Below, piece by piece: positions 454-37,000 of a stretch of DNA of 64,000 nt (positions are counted from its first letter, which is position 1; every line of letters starts with the position of its first letter). The DNA comes from an uncultured virus (IMG/VR IMGVR_UViG_3300045738_002143) (taxonomy: Duplodnaviria > Heunggongvirae > Uroviricota > Caudoviricetes). Below the pieces are notes generated by a model. It did no database searches. It worked only from the letters and a program-made list of their open reading frames with translations, and was not told the DNA's origin. Where the stretch lies: the IMG/VR virus record IMGVR_UViG_3300045738_002143; one strand, 5' to 3'. Both the position numbers and the translations under genes were made by a program.

Positions 454-1416
454 ATGAAAATTTTCACTGCGATTGTTGTGCTTATTTTTTGTTGTGTTGC
501 GGCTACGGCTAATGCTGATGAGTCTAAGACGAGTACGGAGGGTATCGCACAGTCTAAAGTGGTAACTCATACAGAACTTCCCATGCCCACGGGAGCATCT
601 AACCCTCCTGCTGATTCAAATATAAAGAACCTTATTTGGAATCGACGCACTACCAAGAATTTTGTTATACTGAGTCTAGATGATGATCAAGGTGAGTACC
701 TTCAGAGAAATATAGAAAACATGAAGGATTGGGTAATGTCTCGATGGGGTCTTCCAAACGTAGATTTTCCGAATCAGGGAATTGAACCGGGTTGCATGAT
801 ACTATGTGTGCCAACTAAAGAACTGATGAAAAAGTTATTTCGTTTGGAAAGATCACATGGTGAAGTTAGAATGAAGGATGGGAATATAGAAAAAAGAGTC
901 TTGTGGGTTGTTCTAGATGGGCGACCAGCAGAAGCGGTTCCATCAGCATTGACTTTAGTGTGCTTGAAGCAAATTGAAATCGATCAAAAAATTAAGATTG
1001 GCTATTGGATGCAACGTGGCATGGCTGTACTTAATAGTACGATACCTCAAATTAGATCAAGGCTTGCAAGCCTACAAACACCTTTGAGCAAAGATAGTGA
1101 AATGTTCTTTAGTAAGAGGTTGTTTATTATGAGTGAGGAGGACTATAGAAATAAAAGTTCCGAACTACAAGATTTATTTGATAGTGAGGCAGCAGCATTA
1201 TGTTTGTTGTTCCGAAAAGAATTTGGCCAGCAAAATATGTTGCGATTTCTAAAGCAAGGAGGGAAGGAATCTATGTTATTAGGCACATATGGATTTCAAA
1301 ATTGTAATCACCTGGATATTACGTTCAAGAGATATATGTATCATCTTGCTTCTGATATAGCAGTCAATAAGACTCCAGAAAATTATCTACAAATAGTACC
1401 GTCAAAACCTAAATAA
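454..1416 (+). CDS. Hypothetical protein with signal peptide
   Basis: 320-aa ORF, hydrophobic N-terminus ending ANA. Confidence 0.7.
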   Translation: MKIFTAIVVLIFCCVAATANADESKTSTEGIAQSKVVTHTELPMPTGASNPPADSNIKNLIWNRRTTKNFVILSLDDDQGEYLQRNIENMKDWVMSRWGLPNVDFPNQGIEPGCMILCVPTKELMKKLFRLERSHGEVRMKDGNIEKRVLWVVLDGRPAEAVPSALTLVCLKQIEIDQKIKIGYWMQRGMAVLNSTIPQIRSRLASLQTPLSKDSEMFFSKRLFIMSEEDYRNKSSELQDLFDSEAAALCLLFRKEFGQQNMLRFLKQGGKESMLLGTYGFQNCNHLDITFKRYMYHLASDIAVNKTPENYLQIVPSKPK

Positions 1417-1443
1417 AGTAGAATCAAATTGTATGGAGGTTAT

Positions 1444-1740
1444 ATGTTTAGTATATTAATTTGGATTGTATATGGATTAATTGTTGGTTTGATTGCGAAA
1501 GCACTTCACCCCGGAGATGATCCTGTTGGTTTTTTGCCAACTGTTGGTATCGGCATTGCTGGTAGCTACGTGGGGGGTCTGGTCAACTGGCTTCTAGGTA
1601 GAGGAGAAGTTTTCTCTAGCTCTGGAATCTTAATGGGGGTTATTGGTGGTGTTATATTCTGTTATATTTATCGCAGATTCCGACTTAATAAGCTGTTTGC
1701 CTTGAAGGCGCAGCAAGTTAAAGAACGAGAAAATAAGTAA
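1444..1740 (+). CDS. GlsB/YeaQ/YmgE (transglycosylase-associated) membrane protein
   Basis: WIVYGLIVGLIAKALHPG..GIAGSYVGG pattern; GGAGG RBS before ATG 1444. Confidence 0.85.
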   Translation: MFSILIWIVYGLIVGLIAKALHPGDDPVGFLPTVGIGIAGSYVGGLVNWLLGRGEVFSSSGILMGVIGGVIFCYIYRRFRLNKLFALKAQQVKERENK

Positions 1741-11382: not shown

Positions 11383-13041
11383 ATGGCTAACAAGAGTCTT
11401 TTTGGAACTAAGACTGAAACCGAAAAAGCCACCGCAGTCAATGCTGCTGGTGGTCGTGCATACGAGTCGTCTCATAAGCAGGCTCTTGCGCAGATTGCTG
11501 CCACGAATTGCTTTAATGGAACCTACTACGCTAGGGCCGAGGACAATCTCAAGATTGCTCGTGATGCTGCGCAGAATTTAGTTGATGATCCACAGTTTAT
11601 CGCTAAGGTTGCATTATATTCTCGCAGCAAGTCTTACATGAAAGACATGCCAGCGTTCTTGACGGTTGTGTTGGCTGGGATCGATACCAAATTATTTAGG
11701 CAGGTGTTCCCGCTCGTGATCGATAATGGGAGGATGTTGCGTAATTTCATCCAAATTGCTCGCAGTGGGCAGACTGGCCGCACTTTTAATATGTCGGCTG
11801 GTACGTGTCGTCATGCAATTCGTGATTGGTTTGCCAGCAAGTCATCTCATGCAATTTTCAAGGCTTCTATCGGCAACGATCCTTCCATGCGAGATATTTT
11901 GCGCATGGCTCGTCCCCGACCGGATTCTAAGGAGAAGGCGGCTCTGTACGGTTATCTCAAGGGGGCCGAACTAGACAAGAAGACTGGTGCATACCGGACT
12001 TACAATAAAGATGGCAGTGTTCGTTACGAGCATCCTTTCGAGGCTCTGCCGCAGATTGTGCGTGAATACGAGCAATATAAGATGACCAAGGAAGGTACAC
12101 CACCGAATGTAGATTTCCGTATGTTGGATTCATTGGGTTTAGGTCAGTCTGAGTGGACAGACATCGCTCGAAATGCTCCGTGGATGATGACTCGGATGAA
12201 CCTGAACACGTTTGCACGTCATGGTGTATTCGAGGACACCGAGGTTAGTGATCTAATTGCGGCTCGTTTGAGCAACCGTGAGCAGATCGAGAAGTCCCGT
12301 ACTTTCCCATATCAGTTAATGTCTGCTTGGAGGGCCACTAGCGGGAACGAGAAGGTGCCGCATAATGTTCGTGAGGCGTTACAGGATGCGATGGAAATCG
12401 CAATCGATAATGTGCCGAAGATCAATGGTCAGGTATTCGTCTGTGTGGATACTTCAGGCTCTATGGGTTCGCCCGTCACTGGAGATCGTAGGGGATACGG
12501 CGCTCCAAGCACGAGTGTTAGTTGTGTAGACGTGGCCGGTTTGATTGCGTCGAGCGTGGTTCGCAAGAATAGTTCTGCCCAGGTTTTAACCTTCAAGAGT
12601 GATGCTGTACGTGTAGAATTGAACCCAAGGGACACTGTGTTAACCAATACTGAGAAGTTGGCTAGTGCTGGTGGTGGGACTAACTGTTCTTCTGCTTTGG
12701 CCAAGCTGAATCAAGAGCGGGCCACGGGTGATGTAATTATCTATGTCTCGGATTACGAGTCGTGGGTAGATTCTGGATATGGCTATGGATATGGTGCTGG
12801 TACTGGTATGCTCTCCGAGTGGAGTAATTTTCAGGAGCGGAATCCAAATGCCAAGTTGGTTTGTATAGATTTGACTCCGGGGTCTAACAGTCAAGTGAAG
12901 GAACGGCCCAATATCTTGCAAGTTGGAGGTTTCTCTGATACTGTGTTTGATGTGGTTAAAAACTTCATCGAGCATGGCGATAGTGATAATCACTGGGTTG
13001 ATGAGATTGAGAAAATCGAAATTAATTCTGAAAAGGCTTGA
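11383..13041 (+). CDS. Ro60/TROVE-domain RNA-binding protein (Rsr-like)
   Basis: N-terminal NAAGGRAY, TROVE region, vWA with DTSGSM MIDAS, GGTNCS, VGGFSD. Confidence 0.92.
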   Translation: MANKSLFGTKTETEKATAVNAAGGRAYESSHKQALAQIAATNCFNGTYYARAEDNLKIARDAAQNLVDDPQFIAKVALYSRSKSYMKDMPAFLTVVLAGIDTKLFRQVFPLVIDNGRMLRNFIQIARSGQTGRTFNMSAGTCRHAIRDWFASKSSHAIFKASIGNDPSMRDILRMARPRPDSKEKAALYGYLKGAELDKKTGAYRTYNKDGSVRYEHPFEALPQIVREYEQYKMTKEGTPPNVDFRMLDSLGLGQSEWTDIARNAPWMMTRMNLNTFARHGVFEDTEVSDLIAARLSNREQIEKSRTFPYQLMSAWRATSGNEKVPHNVREALQDAMEIAIDNVPKINGQVFVCVDTSGSMGSPVTGDRRGYGAPSTSVSCVDVAGLIASSVVRKNSSAQVLTFKSDAVRVELNPRDTVLTNTEKLASAGGGTNCSSALAKLNQERATGDVIIYVSDYESWVDSGYGYGYGAGTGMLSEWSNFQERNPNAKLVCIDLTPGSNSQVKERPNILQVGGFSDTVFDVVKNFIEHGDSDNHWVDEIEKIEINSEKA

Positions 13042-15690: not shown

Positions 15691-15764
15691 TGTCGAGTCT
15701 CGAAAGAGATCGGCGGTCCCTACGAACTGGGTCAGGTCGGAAACGAAGCAGCCCTAGTAGGGAT
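15691..15764 (+). ncRNA. Minimal bacterial-type SRP RNA (4.5S-like, helix 8/domain IV)
   Basis: GGGTCAGGTCGGAAACGAAGCAGCCC (CAGG/AGCA symmetric loop, GNRA-type apical loop), GAAC asymmetric loop, closing GTCCCTAC/GTAGGGAT; 5' GAAA hairpin. Confidence 0.85.
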
Positions 15765-15774
15765 TTTATAAAAT

Positions 15775-15846
15775 GCCGGTGTAGCTCAGTGGTAGAGCAC
15801 TGGTTTTGTAAACCAGTTGTCGTGAGTTCGATCCTCTCCACCGGCT
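15775..15846 (+). tRNA. tRNA-Thr(UGU)
   Basis: Cloverleaf GCCGGTG/CACCGGC, anticodon loop TT-TGT-AA; no encoded CCA. Confidence 0.95.
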
Positions 15847-15875
15847 CTTCAGCGTTTTTTCGCACGCTTTCATTG

Positions 15876-23219: not shown

Positions 23220-24035
23220 ATGCTTTTTTCAGAACCAAAATTCTGTAGCCGATTCGTAAACTCAAATGAGGCGGATTGGTCAGGGTGTTTGGCCATTTCA
23301 GGGGAATCATTGGCCTTCGTTTCCTCAGTTAATGAAGGAGGACGTTGTTGGTCAGGGCGATTGGCCATGAGTCTATTCGAACTACATGATTTTTTGGATG
23401 TGCCTAATCTTAAAAATATAGAAACAACAAATATGGTTATAATTGGCAATGCCCCGTATGATCTGAAATTGCCATTGGGAGGTCTTGTAGATTCTTTTGA
23501 AAACATAATGAGATTTAACGATTTCTCAGTGGCAGGAAGACACGAGAGGTATGTGGGTTCTAAAACTACAATATGGTGTTATTTCAATATAAATCCCGTC
23601 CTCCGAAAACGTAACTTTATAAGGCCAAAAGGACATTCTAAAGAATTGATTGTTATGCGTGGAAATTACTTGCATAAACAATTGTGCAAACATGTTGAAA
23701 GTGGATTTGCAGAAAAGATACCTGGAAGTATTGCAAAAGAAATCAATTCGGCATCGGTATTTTCTGTTGTACGAGGGAGGAAGAAATTCCCTTCTACAGG
23801 GGTTATGGGTATTGCTTGGGCATTGTCTAAAGGATACAAGCCTTTGGTTATAGGATTCAATGGGTTTATGAATGAAGGATCAAAACATTATTACAATAAA
23901 ATGGGAAACGCAGGCCGTAAAAATCATTCAGGAGATGAAGAAATACAGTTTTTGAAAGGGCTACATCAGGAAGGAAAGATTTGTTTTTTAGACTTTGCTA
24001 GAAGCAATCGGAAAGCAAGAATTGCCATGATGTAA
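23220..24035 (+). CDS. GT29 sialyltransferase-like protein
   Basis: Sialylmotif L-like VIIGN..VDSFENIMRFN..VGSKTT; S-like PSTG; HYY; H..E. Confidence 0.8.
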   Translation: MLFSEPKFCSRFVNSNEADWSGCLAISGESLAFVSSVNEGGRCWSGRLAMSLFELHDFLDVPNLKNIETTNMVIIGNAPYDLKLPLGGLVDSFENIMRFNDFSVAGRHERYVGSKTTIWCYFNINPVLRKRNFIRPKGHSKELIVMRGNYLHKQLCKHVESGFAEKIPGSIAKEINSASVFSVVRGRKKFPSTGVMGIAWALSKGYKPLVIGFNGFMNEGSKHYYNKMGNAGRKNHSGDEEIQFLKGLHQEGKICFLDFARSNRKARIAMM

Positions 24036-24073
24036 AGGTTGCGCATTGATCTAAATACAGTGGAGGAATAAAT

Positions 24074-24625
24074 ATGAATTCACTTATTGTAGCAACTGTT
24101 CTGCTGTGTGCGACAACGCCAGAGTTACCAGATGGTTCATTGATATTTTTGGATCACAGTAACAATATAGTTGAGAGATATACTGATGCTAAAACAACGC
24201 ATGTTGCAATTGTGATTAATGATAAAGATGGAGCTTGGGTTTATGAGGCGCAACCTCCCAAGGTGAGAAAGGTGAAATTGTCAGAATTCTATGATGATAT
24301 TGTCCGGCTAAAAAGAAAAAGGAAAAAGCTTCGACTTTGGGTGTACACTCCTTTAGAGCCATATAATGATCGTCAAGTAAAAGCGATGAGGGATTATCTG
24401 GAGCAACAGGTGGGAAGAAAGTATTCGATTAAGAGTTATTTGCGAGGCAGAGAGTTAGATGGAATACATTGTTCTGAGATGGTGTCTAGGGCATTGGAAA
24501 AGAGTCAGCGATTTAGAATCTTCAATCCAGCCAGGACCAGTCCTGATGGATTGTTGAGACGGATCAAACATTTGCACACAAGTATTGAGGTCTATATACC
24601 GGTGTTGCCCAGGAGCAATTTATGA
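24074..24625 (+). CDS. Permuted papain-like amidase (YiiX/YebB-like)
   Basis: THVAIV..VYEA..CSEMV (His before Cys). Confidence 0.75.
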
Positions 24626-25317
24626 TGCGAGTTAGACGACCTTTTTCTAACTTTTTACACACCAAGAGTTATGAAAATAATTTCCATTCTCAGAATAAAA
24701 GTTGTGCTGTGATATTTAGTAGCCCCGTGTTGCTGAATAGAGAATATGGCAAGATTATTGATTCTTATGATTTTGTCATTAGATTTAATATGGCACCAAC
24801 GTTGGGGTACGAAAAATTTGTTGGTTCAAAGACCACACATCGCATACTCGGTGGTTATCATGGGACACCATATTATTTTATGGAACAGAATGAGTTAGTT
24901 TTGAGGCCCAACAAACTCACGTACTGGCGTAAGTATTTTGAGAATGATTATGAAAACTATTTGAAGTTTAATAATAAGGCGTATTTTGACAATTACTTTA
25001 TAATGGAACCATGCGGCTTGTCGTCAAACGGTCCTGTAGGATTGTTATTTGCAATTAAACATTTTAGCGAAGTTGGTTTATTTGGTTTTGATTTAGATTT
25101 AGAAATAGATCGAAACAAATGGCATTACTTTGATGATCTAAAAAACACAAAATATTGTAAAGAAATAATGTCTGTTTATGATCTTCCTAATCCATACGAT
25201 AAAATAGTTTCTACCGCTGATGTAAAAACCGTGCATAGAAACCACCGCTTTGTGGAAGAAAAAAAATCAATCCTAAAATTTGTGCAAGATAATAAAGTTG
25301 TGTTGAATGGGGCCTAA
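24622..25317 (+). CDS. GT29 sialyltransferase-like protein
   Basis: [43 protein letters not shown]. Confidence 0.85.
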
Positions 25318-26929: not shown

Positions 26930-27268
26930 ATGAACACCAAAGAATATCAGAGGGAGTACCACAAGAAATGGTATGCCGATCCCAAGAATGCTCGGAATAA
27001 AAAGGAAAACGCAAAGAAGCACCGCATCTTGAAACGTGCAAGGAACCGCCAGTTTCTCAAGGAATACAAAGAAGAGAAGTGTTGCGAGAAGTGCGACGAA
27101 TCACATCCGGCTTGTTTGGACTTCCACCATTTGGAACCTTCAGAAAAGGACCATAACATTTCTGACATGGTGCCCAGAGGCTATAGCATTGAGAGGATTA
27201 ATGAAGAGATTGGGAAGTGCATTTTGGTTTGTAGAAATTGTCACGCTAAAATTCACTGGGGCGATTAG
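26930..27268 (+). CDS. HNH endonuclease (free-standing, homing-type)
   Basis: CEKC..CLDFHH..KCILVCRNCH..H. Confidence 0.85.
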   Translation: MNTKEYQREYHKKWYADPKNARNKKENAKKHRILKRARNRQFLKEYKEEKCCEKCDESHPACLDFHHLEPSEKDHNISDMVPRGYSIERINEEIGKCILVCRNCHAKIHWGD

Positions 27269-27332
27269 CTTAGTTGGCTAAAGCATTCGGCTTACATCCG
27301 AAAGATCGCAGGTTCGAATCCTGCATCGCTCA
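27259..27332 (+). tRNA. tRNA-Val(UAC)
   Basis: GGGCGAT/ATCGCTC acceptor, CT-TAC-AT loop, GGTTCGAATCC. Confidence 0.93.
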
Positions 27333-27372
27333 CTTAAGGTGATAAAAGCCGTTAACGCATCGGGAGACTAAC

Positions 27373-28767
27373 ATGACAGAGCAGGTTGCCAAGAGTGAAT
27401 ATAAATATGGTTTTCACGACAATAATGTAAACATCGAGACGTTCGACAAGGGCCTGAGCGAAGATGTTGTTCGTCGAATTTCTGAAATAAAAAGTGAACC
27501 AGAGTGGATGCTGGAATATCGATTGAAAGCTCTTGATATATTCTATAAAAAGCCCATGCCTATGTGGGGCGGAGACATGAGTGGCATAAACTTTGATAAT
27601 ATTATTTATTACGTAAAGCCATCAGACAAACAAGAGAACGACTGGGACGATGTTCCTGATGAAATAAGAAAAACATACGATAAACTGGGTATTCCTGAAG
27701 CTGAAAAGAAATATCTAGCTGGTGTGAAAGCTCAGTATGAATCCGAAGTAATATATGGAAGCCTTGAAGAAGGTCTAGAAAAGCAAGGTGTAATTTTTCT
27801 TAGTACCGATGAAGCGTTGAAAAAACATCCTGATTTGGTAAAGGAATATTTCGGAACAATTATCCCTCCTGCGGATAACAAATTTGCAGCCTTGAATACG
27901 GCAGTTTGGAGTGGAGGTTCATTTATCTATATTCCAAAAGGCGTTAATGTTGAATTTCCTTTACAAGCATACTTCCGCATTAATTCAGAGAACATGGGGC
28001 AATTTGAAAGAACGATTATCATTTGTGATGAGGGTTCACAGGTTCACTATGTTGAGGGCTGCACCGCTCCAATTTGGACATCAGATTCTTTACACTCGGC
28101 TGTTGTTGAAATTGTTGTAAAGAAAGATGCTCGTTGTCGTTACACTACAATTCAGAATTGGTCAAACAACGTATACAACCTTGTCACTAAACGAGCGATG
28201 GCCTATAGGGATAGTGTAATGGAGTGGGTTGACGGGAATCTGGGTTCTAAACTTACGATGAAATATCCGTCAATTTACATGATGGAACCGGGGGCACGAG
28301 GTGAAATTCTTAGTATTGCTTTTGCCGCCAGGGGCCAACATCAGGATGCTGGAGGCAAAGTGGTTCATTGTGCCCCAAACACTTCTAGCCGGATCGTCTC
28401 AAAGTCAATTTCTAAAGATGGTGGAAGATCGTCATATCGAGGTCTTTGCAAAGTGGTGAAAGGAGCAAAGAATTGTAAGTCTAATGTTGTTTGTGACGCA
28501 CTTATTCTTGATCCAGAAAGTCGATCTGATACTTATCCTTACATTGAAGTTGATGAAGAAAATGTATCCATAGAACATGAGGCGTCAGTAAGCAGGATTG
28601 GGGAAGAACAATTGTTCTATTTAATGTCTCGTGGCATGTCGGAATCTGAAGCATCTACGATGATTGTAAGCGGTTTTATTGAACCGTTAACCAAAATACT
28701 TCCAATGGAGTACAGTATAGAAATGAATCGCCTAATTGAACTGCAAATGGAAGGTTCTGTGGGATAA
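27373..28767 (+). CDS. sufB: Fe-S cluster assembly protein SufB
   Basis: [42 protein letters not shown]. Confidence 0.97.
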
Positions 28768-31930: not shown

Positions 31931-32305
31931 GTGGAAGCAGTCAAACAAGTGATCGTGATTCGGCGAGATTTGAAAATGCGCCGGGGGAAGGAGATCGCTC
32001 AGGGTAGCCACGCTAGTCTAGCTTTTATCACTCGTCAGCTTCAACATGGCAACAAGGTGAAACTTTCAAAAGTGGCGAAGCAATGGATCGATTCTAGTTT
32101 TGCCAAGATATGTTGTCGAGTAAATTCTGAAGAACAACTACTTGATATTTATCAACGGGCAAAAGATGCTATGTTGGAAGTTCATCTGATTACCGATAGT
32201 GGTAAGACGGAGTTCGATGGGGTTCCAACAAAAACGTGTTTGGCTATTGGGCCAAATTTGTCCGATGAAATAGATGAAATTACAGGCGAGTTGCAGTTGT
32301 ACTGA
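31931..32305 (+). CDS. pth2: Peptidyl-tRNA hydrolase type 2 (Pth2)
   Basis: KQVIVIRRDLKMRRGKEIAQGSHAS..DSGKTE..TCLAIGP..IDEITGEL. Confidence 0.93.
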   Translation: MEAVKQVIVIRRDLKMRRGKEIAQGSHASLAFITRQLQHGNKVKLSKVAKQWIDSSFAKICCRVNSEEQLLDIYQRAKDAMLEVHLITDSGKTEFDGVPTKTCLAIGPNLSDEIDEITGELQLY

Positions 32306-32359
32306 ATTATTTTTAGAAGAGAGGAGGACCAGACTAGATATTTGGAAGGAGCGATTTAT

Positions 32360-33052
32360 ATGGCTATTCTAACCTTAGAGCACCGAAGGGTATTGGTGCT
32401 GAATAAGCTTTGGGCGGCTATTGGTGTATGTTCACTGCAACGAGCAATTGGGCTGCTATTCAGTGAGTACCACAACGGCGAGCCAAAGGCACGGGTCATT
32501 GATCCTGTTATGGACTTCCAAACATTTTCCTGGTCTGATTGGGCCGAATTGCGACCCAAGGATGATGAGCAATGTATTCACGCTGCACATGGCATGGCGT
32601 TTAGGTTGCCAGAAGTTTTACTGCTTACTCGGTATGATAAGATGCCGCAGCAGCGAGTTCTTTTTTCCCGCAGGACGCTCTACAGGAGAGATAATTTCTG
32701 TTGCCAATATTGTGGCATAAAACCGGGCAGTGAAGAACTTACAATCGACCACGTTATTCCTCGTTCTCATGATGGAAAGACGACATGGGATAATTGTGTT
32801 CTTGCTTGTGTTCAGTGCAACTCTCAGAAGGCAAACCGGATTCCAGAAAAGGCTTACAAGGGTTTGCTATCGCAGGGATTGCGAAAAAATTGGAGAGGTC
32901 CGACCCCGATGAGGTTGCGTTCGGTTCCAAAAAAGCCTAGATACACTCTGTTTAAGGGCAATAGAAAAACGGTCCCTCAGTCTTGGAACCATTTTATTTC
33001 CGAGGCGTATTGGCAGGTAACAATGGACAACGATGAAAAGGATGAAGACTAA
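32360..33052 (+). CDS. HNH endonuclease (McrA-like)
   Basis: VLVLN, RDNFCCQYCG, LTIDHVIPRS, WDNCVLACVQCN. Confidence 0.9.
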   Translation: MAILTLEHRRVLVLNKLWAAIGVCSLQRAIGLLFSEYHNGEPKARVIDPVMDFQTFSWSDWAELRPKDDEQCIHAAHGMAFRLPEVLLLTRYDKMPQQRVLFSRRTLYRRDNFCCQYCGIKPGSEELTIDHVIPRSHDGKTTWDNCVLACVQCNSQKANRIPEKAYKGLLSQGLRKNWRGPTPMRLRSVPKKPRYTLFKGNRKTVPQSWNHFISEAYWQVTMDNDEKDED

Positions 33053-33079
33053 CGTTTTTCGATAGGATACAGTTTTGTG

Positions 33080-33111
33080 AACCCCCGATGCCGCAGGCAT
33101 TGGGGGTTTTT
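33080..33111 (+). terminator. Intrinsic terminator
   Basis: AACCCCCGATGCC/GGCATTGGGGGTTTTT. Confidence 0.85.
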
Positions 33112-33115
33112 GTGG

Positions 33116-33143
33116 TTTACAACCGAGTTAAACGCAGTATAAT
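33116..33143 (+). promoter_or_regulatory. Promoter upstream of csrA leader
   Basis: TTTACA-N16-TATAAT. Confidence 0.75.
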
Positions 33144-33280: not shown

Positions 33281-33303
33281 CTTTTTTCAAGGAGGAGATA
33301 AAG

Positions 33304-33609
33304 ATGCTTGTGTTAAGTAGAAAAAGGAATGAAGCCATTGTGATATCCACGAAGCAAGGGGAGATCACAGTGCAAGTGGTGGAAACTAGAGGAGAACAGG
33401 TTAGGCTTGGAATCGAATGTAGCAGGGACATACCAGTGCATAGAAAAGAAGTGCTGGATGCGATTAAAGAAAACAACAATCTCGCCGACCATGACGAGTC
33501 ATTGTTGCAGTATCAATCTTATGTCGCAACGTGTGTTGAGGATTCGACAATTAGTAACCCTGTTCGTCCGATTGGTTTTGATGAATGGTACGCTTCTCAG
33601 TGTCGTTGA
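33304..33609 (+). CDS. csrA: Carbon storage regulator CsrA-like protein
   Basis: MLVLSRKRNEAIVI..QVRLGIE..IPVHRKE. Confidence 0.9.
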   Translation: MLVLSRKRNEAIVISTKQGEITVQVVETRGEQVRLGIECSRDIPVHRKEVLDAIKENNNLADHDESLLQYQSYVATCVEDSTISNPVRPIGFDEWYASQCR

Positions 33610-33747
33610 TAATTATTGACGCTTCTTGATCGGATACGTAGACCATAATGATTATTCTCTGCCAAAAATAGTTATCTCAGGAGGTAGAAGCATGAATGGA
33701 TAGTGCGATCAAAAGGGCCGGTAGCTCAGTTGGTTAGAGCAGCGGAC

Positions 33748-34176
33748 TTAACTAAAAGATCGTCTAAGTGAAGGGTGGTGTAAGTCAGTATGACAGTTCA
33801 AGCATAAAAGTTGACATTTGTTGGATTCTTCCAATAAAGTTTCCCATTTGTGATTTGAACACGCACGTAGGTCTAATCCAAAGTTTTTAGTTGCTGGATT
33901 AATGTGGTGGAAGCTAAGAGCGGAGTAGTTGTATTGATAACCACAAAGTTCGCATTTTCCACCTTTTCCTTCGACTAGATTAATCTTGCGTTTTAGACCA
34001 CGTTTCTGTTGCGAAGCATAGTTTTGGTGCTTGATGTTGCCATGTTTATTATGGCATTTTCGAGAACAATATTTTGCTTGCCTACCAGATAATGTCTTGC
34101 TGCAAACAACGCATTTTATATGACGTTCTTTTATTGGGTTGCTATTAGTTTTCATGTGATTATGGGAGTAGTTCAT
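33748..34176 (-). CDS. Intron-encoded HNH endonuclease (antisense)
   Basis: CELCG..ALSFHH..KCQLLCLNCH..H plus N-terminal CVVC..YCSRKC. Confidence 0.85.
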   Translation of the reverse strand: MNYSHNHMKTNSNPIKERHIKCVVCSKTLSGRQAKYCSRKCHNKHGNIKHQNYASQQKRGLKRKINLVEGKGGKCELCGYQYNYSALSFHHINPATKNFGLDLRACSNHKWETLLEESNKCQLLCLNCHTDLHHPSLRRSFS

Positions 34177-34359
34177 AATCGTTTTGAAGACTTTTAGTAG
34201 AATTTGTCAAATTCAGGGAAGGCTAAGTTTCTTAGGAAATATGCTAATCCTGAGCCAAGCTCGTAAGAGAAGGTGCAGAGACTAGACGGCAAACCCGTAA
34301 AGGGAAGGGATAGTCCAGGCCACAAACTTGAAAGAGGCGGCGAAAGTCGTAGTGGTAAG
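33749..34359 (+). mobile_element. Group I intron (IC3-like)
   Basis: P AAATTCAGGGAA, Q AATCCTGAGC, R GCAGAGACTAGA, S AGGGATAGTCC; P3 TTTGTC/GGCAAA; exon ends in U, intron ends in G. Confidence 0.9.
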
Positions 34360-34400
34360 CATAATCCGTTGGTCGAAGGTTCGAGTCCTTCTCGGCCCAC

Positions 34401-34757
34401 TTATCTTTGTAGCTTTTCTGCTGTGCGATGCCACATAGAAGGTTCTTGTCCAGTTGGGCCTTGTACTTTCTGCCAGTCTCTTGTTTTTTCCTTAATCCAT
34501 TTTTCAGGATTATCTTTGAATGCTGGCCACCATGCTGGGTATCTGGGTGGATTAGCTTCAACTATCATTCTGAATATAGTTTGATAGTCGGGTTGTTGGG
34601 GGTACAGTTCTTCTAAAGCTCTCTTTACTAGCTCAGGCATGACAGTCAACAATTCATTGTGTTCAAGATTGTCGCTGTAGCCCGCAACAAGTTCGGCGGT
34701 AGACATCTTCATGCCTTCATTTTTCAACCATTCATTGAATAATTGGTATTTGGCCAT
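34401..34757 (-). CDS. Hypothetical phage protein (FNEWLKNE N-terminus)
   Basis: 118-aa ORF. Confidence 0.6.
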   Translation of the reverse strand: MAKYQLFNEWLKNEGMKMSTAELVAGYSDNLEHNELLTVMPELVKRALEELYPQQPDYQTIFRMIVEANPPRYPAWWPAFKDNPEKWIKEKTRDWQKVQGPTGQEPSMWHRTAEKLQR

Positions 34758-34759
34758 TG

Positions 34760-35080
34760 CTATTGTATCCTTTGAGGATTTCCTGCTCGTCTATCTCTAT
34801 CGCCAGCACTCCATCCTGCACGGTATTCATTTGCCAGAATCCAGCTTATTGGAGAAAGCCAGTTGCCGTTATAGCCATCTCGGTAGCCACGAATATATTC
34901 AATTGATTGAGGGATGATGGGCTGAACCGGTGGATGCACGAGTGGTCCCGGTTCGATTGGCTCTACTGGCCGAACTGGCTCTACTGGCCGAACTGGCTCT
35001 ACTGGCGGCATTGGCTCTATTGGCGTCTGTCCGCAGCCGATGAATAATGCCACAATTCCTAAAATTAAAGTTCTTTTCAT
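34760..35080 (-). CDS. Lipoprotein-like protein with PVEPVR repeats
   Basis: MKRTLILGIVALFIGC lipobox-like; 18-bp tandem repeats near 34958-35008. Confidence 0.65.
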   Translation of the reverse strand: MKRTLILGIVALFIGCGQTPIEPMPPVEPVRPVEPVRPVEPIEPGPLVHPPVQPIIPQSIEYIRGYRDGYNGNWLSPISWILANEYRAGWSAGDRDRRAGNPQRIQ

Positions 35081-35729: not shown

Positions 35730-36449
35730 ATGTTTATGATTTGTGTTTATTATCTAAATGAGAGAGATATACATGTTCGCATGGCTATGAATAGTCTGCA
35801 CATGTTGCGGGCGCATAATCAGTCTGTGCCAATTAGATTGTTTATTGTTTCTAACGAGTTTGTTCCCAAGCACAAGCATACTGAGGAATTATTGAAATGG
35901 TGCAAAGAATGGCGAGTAGAAGTTGTTCAGAAACCACTTGATCACGAGTTCTTTTTTACTAATAAGCACCACATCAAAGATTGCCCTGAAAATCGGGTAT
36001 TGTTTATAGATGCCGATACGTTTATTTTTGATGACGTGGAAAAAATATTCGATAAGTATCAAGATTGTGATTTTGTTGGCTGCAAGAATGAATGGGTTAC
36101 TGGCCGGGGGTGGGATGATTTTCTAGATGGGGTCATGCCATTTAATGGTGGTGTGCAACTTTATAACAATGGGTGCCATAGGAATATTTTGGGGCAGTTG
36201 CCTTCTAAATGCAATGATCTGGGGGCGATGGGAAAATGGTTAAAAGAAGGAGATATGGAACACAATCGAGAAGAAATGGCTATTTCCAAAATTGTTGCTG
36301 AGGAACATTCTTTTGAGTATTTTAGAAGAGAGGATTGTCTAATACCTTTGTGGAGTTCTGACCTTGATAATCCGCAAGAGACGATTATATTTCATTCTTT
36401 TGTAAGCCAATGGAATCAGATTTATTCAATGGTAGAGTCTAAAAAATAA
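35730..36449 (+). CDS. GT8-like glycosyltransferase
   Basis: VLFIDADT, FNGGV. Confidence 0.7.
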   Translation: MFMICVYYLNERDIHVRMAMNSLHMLRAHNQSVPIRLFIVSNEFVPKHKHTEELLKWCKEWRVEVVQKPLDHEFFFTNKHHIKDCPENRVLFIDADTFIFDDVEKIFDKYQDCDFVGCKNEWVTGRGWDDFLDGVMPFNGGVQLYNNGCHRNILGQLPSKCNDLGAMGKWLKEGDMEHNREEMAISKIVAEEHSFEYFRREDCLIPLWSSDLDNPQETIIFHSFVSQWNQIYSMVESKK

Positions 36450-37000
36450 ATCTTTCCTTCCTGGTGTAGTTCTTTCAAATAGTCCATTTCCTTATTGCCC
36501 GAATGGCCAAAACATTTACTTTTATCCCATTGTTCATAATAGTGTTGTGATCCTTTGTTCTTAAATCCATTGAATCCAATAACCAAAGGTCGGTAGCCTT
36601 CATACAAGGCCCAGGCAATACCTATAATTCCTGTCGAAGGCTGTCGTACAGGTACATCCCAACACGGGCGGAAGAACAACTTTCGCCTCAATTTATCCAA
36701 AACATGTTTGCGGTTGATTCCGTAAGCTATTTCTTGGGGATATCCTTTTATCTTATTGTGCGTTTCACAAGATCGCAATTTTTGTATGGCAGGACTGTGA
36801 GGCAAATAACACCATATTGTAGTTTTGGAGCCTACATATTTATCGTGTCCCGTAACTGAAAAAGTATTGAACCTCATTATGTTTTCAAAAGAATCTATAA
36901 ACCTTCCCAAAGGTAATTTAAAATCGTATGGGGCATTGCCGATTATGACAATATTGCATCTCGCCATAGCTGAGAATTTGTGAGGATTGTGAAAAAGCAT
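36422..37000 (-). CDS. GT29 sialyltransferase-like protein (paralog of 23220-24035)
   Basis: IIGNAPYD.KLPLG..DSFENIMRFN..VGSKTTIW; PSTG; HYY. Confidence 0.8.
   Translation of the reverse strand: MLFHNPHKFSAMARCNIVIIGNAPYDFKLPLGRFIDSFENIMRFNTFSVTGHDKYVGSKTTIWCYLPHSPAIQKLRSCETHNKIKGYPQEIAYGINRKHVLDKLRRKLFFRPCWDVPVRQPSTGIIGIAWALYEGYRPLVIGFNGFKNKGSQHYYEQWDKSKCFGHSGNKEMDYLKELHQEGKIYFLDSTIE

Follow-up and report, generated by a model that had tools for sequence, protein, structure and literature searches.

Among the group I introns described so far, those of two bacterial transfer RNA (tRNA) genes with a CAU anticodon are among the closest to the element considered here, a 611-nucleotide (nt) intron with an antisense HNH gene that splits a tRNA(CAU) gene at positions 33715-34399 of an uncultured-virus record (IMG/VR IMGVR_UViG_3300045738_002143); the 64,000 nt of this record are referred to as the window. 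The cyanobacterial tRNA-fMet(CAU) intron of Synechocystis PCC 6803 reportedly encodes the homing endonuclease I-Ssp6803I, as described by Biniszkiewicz et al. in 1994 and by Bonocora and Shub in 2001, and the open reading frame (ORF) of this enzyme is sense oriented. The tRNA-Ile(CAU) intron of Azoarcus sp. BH72 is said to have been found by Reinhold-Hurek and Shub in 1992. Both fall into the four classical classes of bacterial tRNA introns (Leu.3Ug, Arg.5Ug, fMet.2Ug and Ile2.5Ug), all of them IC3, to which 17 new ones have been added, and introns above ∼400 bp "may contain" genes (Williams 2020 preprint). An earlier, sequence-only reading of the window had rightly stated that the Azoarcus intron (Ile2.5Ug) is inserted after the CAU and the cyanobacterial tRNA-fMet intron (fMet.2Ug) after U33 (Williams 2020 preprint). 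Like the window intron, the latter lies at U33|C34 of a CAU tRNA; it is of the IC3 type, as the window intron appears to be, and carries a homing-endonuclease ORF in some copies; its host tRNA is, however, an initiator and its host a cyanobacterium, whereas the window tRNA is a non-initiator in a probable phage, and I-Ssp6803I is a PD-(D/E)XK enzyme (PMC3424549), in contrast to the HNH enzyme of the window. The Azoarcus intron appears to share with the window intron an Ile2-type CAU tRNA, a small IC3 core and a P1 helix formed with the anticodon stem, whereas it lies three bases further 3′, measures 205 nt, has no ORF and is bacterial.

Further parallels come from outside the tRNA genes. I-HmuI of SPO1 belongs to a phage group I intron with a sense HNH gene. 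Homing-endonuclease genes on the strand opposite to the ribozyme, as in the window, have reportedly been described by Haugen, Johansen and colleagues in group I introns of protist nuclear ribosomal DNA (rDNA); these are His-Cys box genes of eukaryotes, whose expression involves spliceosomal introns and polyadenylation, and they differ from the window in host, enzyme family and target. Zeng, Bonocora and Shub are said to have described in 2009, as "collaborative homing", a free-standing HNH gene beside an ORF-less intron of cyanophage psbA, to which we liken the HNH relatives found outside ORF-less tRNA introns (the viral L120 group and Gammaproteobacteria, see below), whereas the HNH gene of the window sits inside its intron. 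I-PfoP3I of cyanophage Pf-WMP3 resembles the window in combining a phage group I intron with an HNH-family homing/nicking endonuclease (PMC3428280). The SPO1 and Pf-WMP3 introns lie in DNA polymerase genes and carry the ORF in sense orientation in a peripheral loop, in contrast to the tRNA gene and the antisense ORF of the window. All phage introns known by 2014 were located in protein-coding genes despite the many phage tRNA genes, as stated in a review (Hausner, Hafez and Edgell, PMC3984707). The literature searched yielded no account of a group I intron in a phage tRNA gene, nor of a tRNA intron with an HNH gene in antisense; a bacterial "Ile2.2Ug" class may be contained in a table or figure of Williams 2020, and the word "tRNA" does not occur in the main text of the Jug-phage paper.

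The window very probably contains an Ile2-like tRNA(CAU) gene of a probable large marine phage, into which an active group I intron of the IC3 type has been inserted at U33|C34. The 5′ exon (33715-33748, 34 nt, plus strand as all parts of the tRNA and the ribozyme) comprises the acceptor strand, the D arm and the 5′ strand of the anticodon stem, and ends in GCGGACT with C32 and U33. The intron (33749-34359, 611 nt) is preceded by U33748 at position -1 and ends in G34359 as the omega-G, and the 3′ exon (34360-34399) starts with CATAATCCGT (CATAAT) and supplies the CAU, A37, A38, the 3′ strand of the anticodon stem, the variable loop, the T arm, the acceptor strand and the discriminator A, with no encoded CCA. 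When the exons are joined on paper, a 75-nt cloverleaf with the anticodon CAU can be read directly. By default ARAGORN misses the split gene and reports Thr, Val, Pro and Arg as the only tRNAs of the window; with its intron option it returns a tRNA(cat) with a 611-nt intron at ggact|cataa, this option being one that often misplaces introns of such genes and labels them Ser, Leu, Gln or Stop. The Rfam model Intron_gpI (RF00028), a covariance model of the kind that the first reading had proposed as a check, matches 34142-34340 with 58.8 bits, above its gathering score of 50 (E 2.4e-12, computed for the window as a whole). A tRNA(CAU) split at U33 by a 611-nt group I intron, as first read from the letters, is confirmed at its coordinates. 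Splice points that would yield a UAU or UAA anticodon have been considered and rejected, since they require an intron end other than G or a base other than U at -1 and thereby break the rule of a U before the intron and a G at its end.

In its placement the intron corresponds to fMet.2Ug, as it follows two anticodon-loop bases (U33|C34) with U at -1 and G at omega, and not to Ile2.5Ug, which is inserted after the anticodon (five loop bases). The host tRNA departs from fMet.2Ug. Initiator tRNAs are marked by a 1:72 mismatch and three G-C pairs at the foot of the anticodon stem; in the window G1 pairs with C72 and the anticodon stem is GCGGA/UCCGU, without the three G-C pairs at its foot, and therefore the window tRNA is not an initiator.

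The catalytic core has been delineated by alignment and covariation. P2 (34141-34198) consists of a basal stem (34141-44/34195-98) and an inner hairpin (34149-55/34162-68) that is also present in the close ORF-less relative L023, and P3 (34203-08/34288-93; 34203-34293) encloses P4 (34213-18/34248-53), P5 (34222-23/34243-44), P6 (34254-56/34272-74), P6a (34260-62/34267-69) and the 5′ strand of P7 (34280-84), whose 3′ strand lies at 34311-15; in P7, 2 of the 21 sequences have U-A in place of an A-U pair. P8 (34294-96/34302-04, within the region 34294-34315) is followed by a 3′ domain (34319-34359) with a closing stem (34319-23/34352-56), two hairpins with GAAA loops (34327-36 and 34337-50) and an AAG that leads to the omega-G at 34359. 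In an alignment of 21 sequences from the guide sequence to the 3′ splice site (A2), RNAalifold finds 30 pairs, 20 of them with compensatory change, and a hand-named structure of 39 pairs (P3, P4, P5, P6, P6a, the P7 pseudoknot, P8 and three helices of the 3′ domain) is paired in 97.7% of its cells and has changed on both sides in 25 pairs. None of 500 column shuffles matched the paired percentage, the pairs or cells changed on both sides or the covariation score, and for the number of further pair types 5 of 500 did so. When the 3′ partners were shifted by 1-3 columns, the paired share fell to 27-41%. Every listed core pair forms in the window, including the covarying P3/P7 pseudoknot that characterizes group I introns. 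The core also contains a 14-nt word, GAGACTAGACGGCA, which is common to introns of tRNA-Leu(UAA), Arg, Met and other tRNAs on viral contigs, and the window intron is probably of the IC3 type.

The sequence-only reading had not arrived at an unambiguous P1 or internal guide sequence (IGS). Comparison with 22 viral split tRNA(CAU) genes has now revealed it by homology as GGGTT at 34136-34140. In all 23 sequences (the window and its 22 viral relatives) a conserved GGG motif follows the 5′ splice site at a distance of 6-398 nt. The U at -1 is paired with the second G of this motif, or with the first in the case of L114, and the next 2-7 bases pair with the exon. Position -3 of the exon is mostly A, with U in L106 and G in L139, L165 and L127, and the partners are U, A, C and U, respectively, so that P1 covaries there (A-U, U-A, G-C, G.U); at position -4 the variants are G.U, A-U, G-C and U-A. 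The P1 of the window thus contains the U.G wobble with a guide sequence that is expected of group I introns and comprises 4 bp: the wobble U33748.G34137, C33747-G34138, A33746-U34139 and the wobble G33745.U34140. It closes a loop, L1, of 388 nt (33749-34136), which is the antisense of the HNH ORF and measures 6-53 nt in ORF-less relatives. A rival guide, GGTCT at 33870-74 within the ORF, would form 5 bp with the exon and has been discarded, as about one such match is expected by chance per 611 nt and as it is not homologous to the guide sequence of the relatives.

The ORF had also been said to be bracketed by an inverted repeat. The repeat is indeed there (ACTAAAAG at 33751-33758 and CTTTTAGT at 34191-34198); its role as a structural boundary does not stand. 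The intron contains three perfect 8-bp inverted pairs, against 3.4 ± 2.4 in shuffles, and 743 of 5000 shuffles yield a perfect downstream complement to an 8-mer from the first 15 intron bases. The pair is unconserved and absent from the ORF-bearing viral relatives L148 and L152, its pairing would cross P1, and its 3′ arm is the 3′ strand of P2. We read the ACTAAAAG/CTTTTAGT repeat as a coincidence.

Evidence from RNA comes from public sequencing runs. The stretch 33300-34800 occurs wholly or in part in 20 listed runs of 16 studies (seawater, marine and hydrothermal-vent metagenomes), one of which may be the window's own source, and four runs have been compared with the window, three of DNA and one of RNA (X20). 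Contigs of 671, 681 and 718 nt from the DNA runs span the intron and the ORF with 2, 10 and 9 differences from the window, and therefore the intron-bearing allele is present in several studies. In X20, a contig of 151 nt (record 11, depth 8.3, 0 differences) joins 34316-34359 directly to 33754-33860, that is, it goes back by 606 nt, and links G34359 to A33754 (circularization site 33753-33754, plus strand); this joint has not been found in the three DNA runs examined. The circle lacks the first five intron bases UAACU (33749-53), which can pair with GGUUG (34137-41) and end in ACU like the 5′ exon, and the guide sequence had been derived independently by comparison. The X20 joint is a 5′-truncated intron circle, cut just after a splice-site mimic that pairs with the guide sequence, and it uses exactly the predicted omega-G. 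The same behavior is known from the Azoarcus pre-tRNA-Ile, whose omega-G makes 5′-truncated circles once the 5′ end has re-paired with the IGS, as described in a study of this intron (PMC13168695). A circle junction in a public metatranscriptome suggests that the ribozyme works in nature and gives further backing to the core of the first reading, a split tRNA with a group I intron and an antisense HNH gene.

Several points weigh against an active intron. The circle is known from one contig of one RNA library, and RNA libraries can hold DNA; no read or contig of the four runs contains the ligated exons of the window tRNA; and P1 has only 4 bp, two of them wobbles, with which it has to close a 388-nt loop. 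Exon-exon joints that skip 611 nt do occur in the DNA runs, with short sides of 23-30 nt in very deep exon bins, and are most likely uninterrupted genes of other organisms; intron parts without RNA cover and the small share of X20 have been given no weight. The weak P1 and the missing spliced reads could be taken to mean that the intron is a decaying, non-splicing relic and the tRNA a pseudogene. We consider this exceedingly improbable in view of the complete set of core pairs, of the RNA circle with its predicted omega-G and a site that fits the guide sequence, and of the conservation of the element at 98.5-99.7% identity in contigs from three other studies. The window intron is, in our reading, real, probably active and of the mobile type.

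The tRNA itself had been called Ile2-like, and this view gains support from its acceptor pairs, from elimination in related genomes and from codon use. In the ARAGORN cloverleaf the acceptor stem contains G3:C70, C4:G69 and C5:G68. TilS is reported to depend on G3:C70 and C4:G69 in B. cenocepacia and on 4:69 and 5:68 in E. coli (PMC11947777); the pairs of the window fit the identity elements of the former and lie at the positions of the latter, and the rules of these two species may not be those of the host. The same split gene is present in two complete bacterial chromosomes, G001 and G002, where the uninterrupted CAU tRNAs found are an initiator and a GGCUG-type elongator, besides one odd extra uninterrupted CAU gene in G001; the initiators of the bacterial relatives are separate genes that start with CGCGGGG and contain GGGCTCATAACCC. 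Since initiator and elongator are accounted for by other genes, the split gene, the third CAU tRNA, is the Ile2 candidate in both, and the only one from a pattern search that requires CTCATAA and GTTCRA and is not exhaustive. ATA makes up 329 of 1040 Ile codons (32%) in the window ORFs, AGA is the commonest Arg codon, and the other four tRNAs of the window (starts 15775, 27259, 30735 and 31134) read ACA, GUA, CCA and AGA, a set of A-ending-codon tRNAs with which an AUA reader fits. BLAST of each exon against E. coli genomes gives tRNA-Asn and tRNA-Lys, by generic similarity, and carries no information on the isotype. The gene could instead encode an elongator tRNA-Met, in which case the intron would reside in a Met gene and the phage would supply Met decoding; ARAGORN calls it tRNA-Met, from the anticodon alone, and the TilS determinants of the host may differ from those of the reference species. 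The reported TilS elements, the GGCUG start (C3, U4) of the elongator Met genes of the bacterial relatives versus GGGCC in the split genes, the elimination in G001 and G002, and the codon pattern make this quite improbable, and we take the window tRNA to be presumably Ile2-like.

The HNH ORF (142 aa, 34176-33751, minus strand, with a possible second start, M8, at 34155) had been described as antisense with its TAA stop over the 5′ splice junction, and this is what we find: the stop occupies 33748-33750 and covers U33 and the first two intron bases. The ORF matches PHROG 2255 ("HNH endonuclease", E 1.6e-21); no Pfam or NCBIfam family scores above cut-off, the best Pfam being an AI2M-like HNH at E 0.013. 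In a search of 5.8 billion proteins it matched 93 homologues, one of them 96% identical and the others at most 63%. Invariant in an alignment of 32 sequences are an N-terminal CxxC...CxxxC, a CxxC before HH and a final CxxCH...H; the invariant residues include C75, C78, H90, C125, C128, H129 and H133, in keeping with an HNH motif flanked by zinc-binding CxxC pairs. An AlphaFold (AF2) model has a mean pLDDT of 88; Foldseek finds no match in the PDB at E ≤ 0.001, and its weak top rows (E 0.06 or weaker) are nearly all HNH nucleases (Cap5, Cas9 HNH, Gme HNH, McrA, T4 endonuclease VII). The final codon of the ORF abuts the 5′ splice site, and its first 13-14 codons are the antisense of P2, which contains both candidate start codons on the opposite strand, and of the guide sequence, where AACCCA (Asn13-Pro14) complements TGGGTT. 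All of L1 is therefore coding sequence when read in antisense. An open frame has been kept in each of the four variants seen, among them those of three other studies, and their 11 variant sites comprise ∼6 synonymous and 5 non-synonymous ones. The HNH protein is predicted to cut intron-less tRNA(CAU) genes at or near the anticodon loop, and such a homing role is backed circumstantially by the recurrent co-location with split tRNA genes and by an intron-less target in L207.

Relatives of the element are widespread on viral contigs. Two exact-word scans of IMG/VR, one with the 14-nt core word (106 loci) and one with a 15-nt word of the 3′ splice site (100 loci), gave 206 loci, with some contigs fetched by both; about half of the loci of the 15-nt word are chance matches without a tRNA. 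A purpose-written finder located in 50 of the 206 loci 22 distinct tRNA(CAU) genes split exactly after U33, with introns of 185-637 nt. Two of them, L148 (637-nt intron) and L152 (553 nt), carry in the same place an antisense HNH homologue that is 52% and 45% identical, respectively, to that of the window. The 14-nt word also retrieves viral group I introns in tRNA-Leu(UAA), Arg, Lys, Gln and others, and CAU genes of the Azoarcus type, split after the anticodon, are present on the viral contigs L033, L050 and L035. Two or three intron-split tRNA genes lie within 2 kb of each other in L013, L038, L044, L067, L074 and L076 (in L038 those for Leu(UAA) and CAU). An uninterrupted viral tRNA(CAU) in L207 (1140-1250) matches the window from GAGCAGCGGACT through CATAATCCGTTGGTCGAAGGTTC and represents a natural intron-less target.

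In bacteria the layout is also recurrent. A profile of the HNH relatives was run against one genome per GTDB species and matched at least 564 stretches, of which the best 80 have been studied. A group I core, detected by an nhmmer profile of A2, lies beside the HNH gene in 68 of these 80; the two are on opposite strands in 55 loci and share a strand in 13. The finder recovers a tRNA(CAU) split as CT|CATAA in 31 of the 80, and in all but one of them (30) a 558-651-nt intron contains the HNH region in antisense. These loci belong to Acidobacteriota (many Pyrinomonadaceae), Armatimonadota and several Patescibacteria; for the Chamaesiphon locus L239, ARAGORN reports a split tRNA(CAU) gene as well. 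Around the insertion point, 24 bases of several Pyrinomonadaceae copies are identical to those of the window, and GAGCAGCGGACU|CAUAAUCCGUUG around this site is identical in the window, in L207 and in split tRNA-Ile2 genes of Pyrinomonadaceae. Other groups arrange the nuclease differently: it resides on the sense strand within ∼670-nt introns in Bacteroidota (L250, L256-L258, L261, L263, L265, L271, L275), and just outside an ORF-less intron of ∼235-275 nt of another tRNA, labelled Gln or Arg by ARAGORN, in Gammaproteobacteria (L216, L219-L222, L224, L227-L229, L232-L233 and others). In 28 of 34 split genes the ORF ends between -55 and +57 nt from the 5′ splice site, and in 6 of 34 the stop lies exactly over the junction, the longest-ORF pick being a different or broken ORF in 6 of the 34 rows. 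The combination that had been termed unusual is so for the literature searched; for the sequence databases it is not, as L148, L152 and 30 of the 80 bacterial loci have this layout.

The same families raise the question whether the HNH protein is the homing enzyme of the intron in which it sits. On the viral contigs L120, L128, L181 and L190, a tRNA(CAU) gene contains a 207-nt intron that has no ORF, and a free-standing HNH gene whose product is 56-60% identical points towards the 3′ end of this tRNA (in L120 the HNH gene at 1363-1707, minus strand, beside the tRNA at 1071-1350, plus strand). This convergence accounts for the G(F/L)EP tails of the homologues P0005 and P0010, and the arrangement could precede or follow the state in which the nuclease is located within the intron. 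Both L1 ends of ORF-less relatives align with the ends of ORF-bearing L1 (alignment A1), which fits a loss of the ORF by internal deletion and is only suggestive. The window gene has no Shine-Dalgarno (SD) motif before either start (34176 or 34155), and the sole promoter-like site on its strand scores 9/12 in a consensus scan, the only source of our promoter and terminator signals, in which such sites are not enriched over shuffles (7 sites vs 4.8 ± 1.9); both observations speak against an expressed homing gene. One may suppose that the intron is genuine and that the HNH protein does not serve, or has ceased to serve, as its homing enzyme, being a nuclease of the free-standing type that has landed in L1, is poorly expressed or has another target. 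The free-standing relatives of viral contigs and Gammaproteobacteria (there beside introns of ∼235 nt), the preserved L1 ends, the missing expression signals and the 5 non-synonymous among 11 variant sites could all be read in this way. We regard this alternative as rather doubtful, considering that the catalytic and zinc-binding residues are intact and the frame is open in four variants, and that the antisense placement has been retained in viral and bacterial copies at 45-57% protein identity. Because such a constant placement at this divergence is otherwise hard to explain, selection has apparently acted on the HNH protein. Two minus-strand ORFs (35140-34401) converge on the tRNA, and since no terminator is predicted between them and the tRNA, read-through into the HNH gene is possible.

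The window is probably part of a large phage. For 39 of 63 ORFs no Pfam family was found at E 1e-6, an SD-like motif stands before 27 of 67 ORFs, compared with 6.5 ± 2.5 for random places, and its PTH2 gene has its closest relatives on two viral contigs, 527 and 229 kb in length. A tRNA cluster that reads only A-ending codons and three HNH genes, as in large phages, and the 22 related split tRNAs on IMG/VR viral contigs point in the same direction. Counting against a phage, a scan of 64 window ORFs against PHROGs yielded no virion or packaging family, and neither a terminase nor a portal match. Should the window instead be a piece of a bacterial or other cellular genome, the term phage tRNA intron would not apply. 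Such an origin could draw on this gap, on cell-like genes (SufB, a class I aldolase, an NAD-dependent ligase, a thioredoxin, a signal recognition particle (SRP) RNA match and pieces of sigma factors) and on the abundance of the same intron element in bacteria; the family-less ORFs, the viral PTH2 relatives, the tRNA cluster with its HNH genes and the split tRNAs of viral contigs make it unlikely. The ligase is ∼30% identical to phage proteins, and the SufB matches in phage records look like host DNA. That the intron lies "in a phage" is, accordingly, kept as probable and is not proven. A sister genome free of the intron has not been found, as searches for related loci with the HNH protein and the adjacent 118-aa ORF returned no relative of the window, blastn against phage records gave only tRNA-like 39-nt matches, and the PTH2 gene matches three viral contigs without synteny to the window.

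Around the split gene, a CsrA-family regulator (33304-33609, plus strand, Pfam E 6.7e-19) with a strong SD motif lies upstream, preceded by a terminator-like hairpin (33079-33109) and a promoter-like TTTACA-16-TATAAT (33116-33143), both on the plus strand and from the consensus scan only. The latter may be the start of a CsrA-tRNA transcript, and the CsrA-like gene and the split tRNA are probably on the same transcript. A third HNH gene (32342-33052, plus strand, Pfam HNH E 7.5e-17) is located 660 nt upstream of the split tRNA. The second, another member of PHROG 2255 (26930-27265, plus strand, E 8.1e-25) and 33% identical to the HNH protein of the intron, ends inside the first bases of tRNA-Val(UAC) (27259-27333, plus strand) and is another tRNA-associated nuclease of the window. 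The Rfam family Bacteria_small_SRP (RF00169) matches 15708-15784 on the plus strand with 44.1 bits at a cut-off of 40, with an end that overlaps the start of tRNA-Thr(UGU) (15775-15847); a probable phage would not normally be expected to carry a gene for SRP RNA. Ro60/TROVE-like, PTH2 peptidyl-tRNA hydrolase and SufB genes and three GT29 sialyltransferase-like ORFs beside NeuB (11383-13038, 31931-32302, 27373-28764, 23220-25314, 36425-37000) form a gene set that is cell-like and eukaryote-like and odd for a virus.

From these elements the following course may be proposed. The pre-tRNA would probably be co-transcribed with the upstream CsrA-like gene, and GACU at the end of the 5′ exon would pair with GGUU (34137-40) of the guide sequence, closing the 388-nt P1 loop. 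The core from P3 to P9 would then excise the intron and join the exons to the 75-nt tRNA; once the host has introduced lysidine, this tRNA would read AUA. In the freed intron the 5′ end UAACU would re-pair with the guide sequence, and the terminal G would attack after U33753, giving a circle shorter by 5 nt. The HNH gene would be read from the opposite strand, either from a signal of its own or by read-through from the converging genes at 35140-34401, and its product would cleave tRNA(CAU) alleles that lack the intron, at the anticodon loop or close to it, whereupon repair would copy the intron in (homing). The sequences themselves show the anatomy of the gene, a ribozyme that is conserved and covaries, its guide sequence, the circle junction in RNA and an HNH motif that is intact. 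Exon ligation, the Ile2 identity, the mode of HNH expression, the HNH cleavage site and the mobility are in this scheme what we infer.

Two further ideas are speculative, and we would not expect either to hold. As GAGCAGCGGACU|CAUAAUCCGUUG is identical in the window, L207 and Pyrinomonadaceae, the phage HNH protein could cut tRNA-Ile2 genes of the host or of co-infecting phages, and the phage copy might act as a shuttle that seeds the intron across phyla. If true, this would explain the occurrence of one element in Acidobacteriota, Patescibacteria, Armatimonadota, a cyanobacterium and phages. Secondly, since the ORF lies exactly antisense to the P1 loop, the guide sequence and P2, the abundant RNA of the intron, in linear and circular form, might provide an inherent antisense control of the endonuclease that the intron carries. 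In the other direction, the AUA-reading tRNA might mature less efficiently when the HNH gene is transcribed.

The element of the window belongs to a known kind of system, a group I intron of the tRNA anticodon loop with a homing-endonuclease gene; its particular layout is recurrent in databases and, as far as searched, undescribed in the literature. Its copy adds to the family an identified guide sequence and a natural RNA circle junction, and the guide sequence makes the ribozyme activity directly testable. Together with its viral relatives, the locus indicates that tRNA genes of probable phages have been invaded too, in contrast to the picture in the 2014 review (PMC3984707). Default tRNA finders miss such split genes, and the AUA-decoding capacity of a phage would then be under-called. 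In this locus one stretch of DNA is placed under a double constraint, with an RNA structure on one strand and a protein on the other, whose ORF ends on the splice site. With its ORF-bearing, ORF-less and free-standing-nuclease variants, the family offers a test bed for the entry and exit of homing-endonuclease genes.

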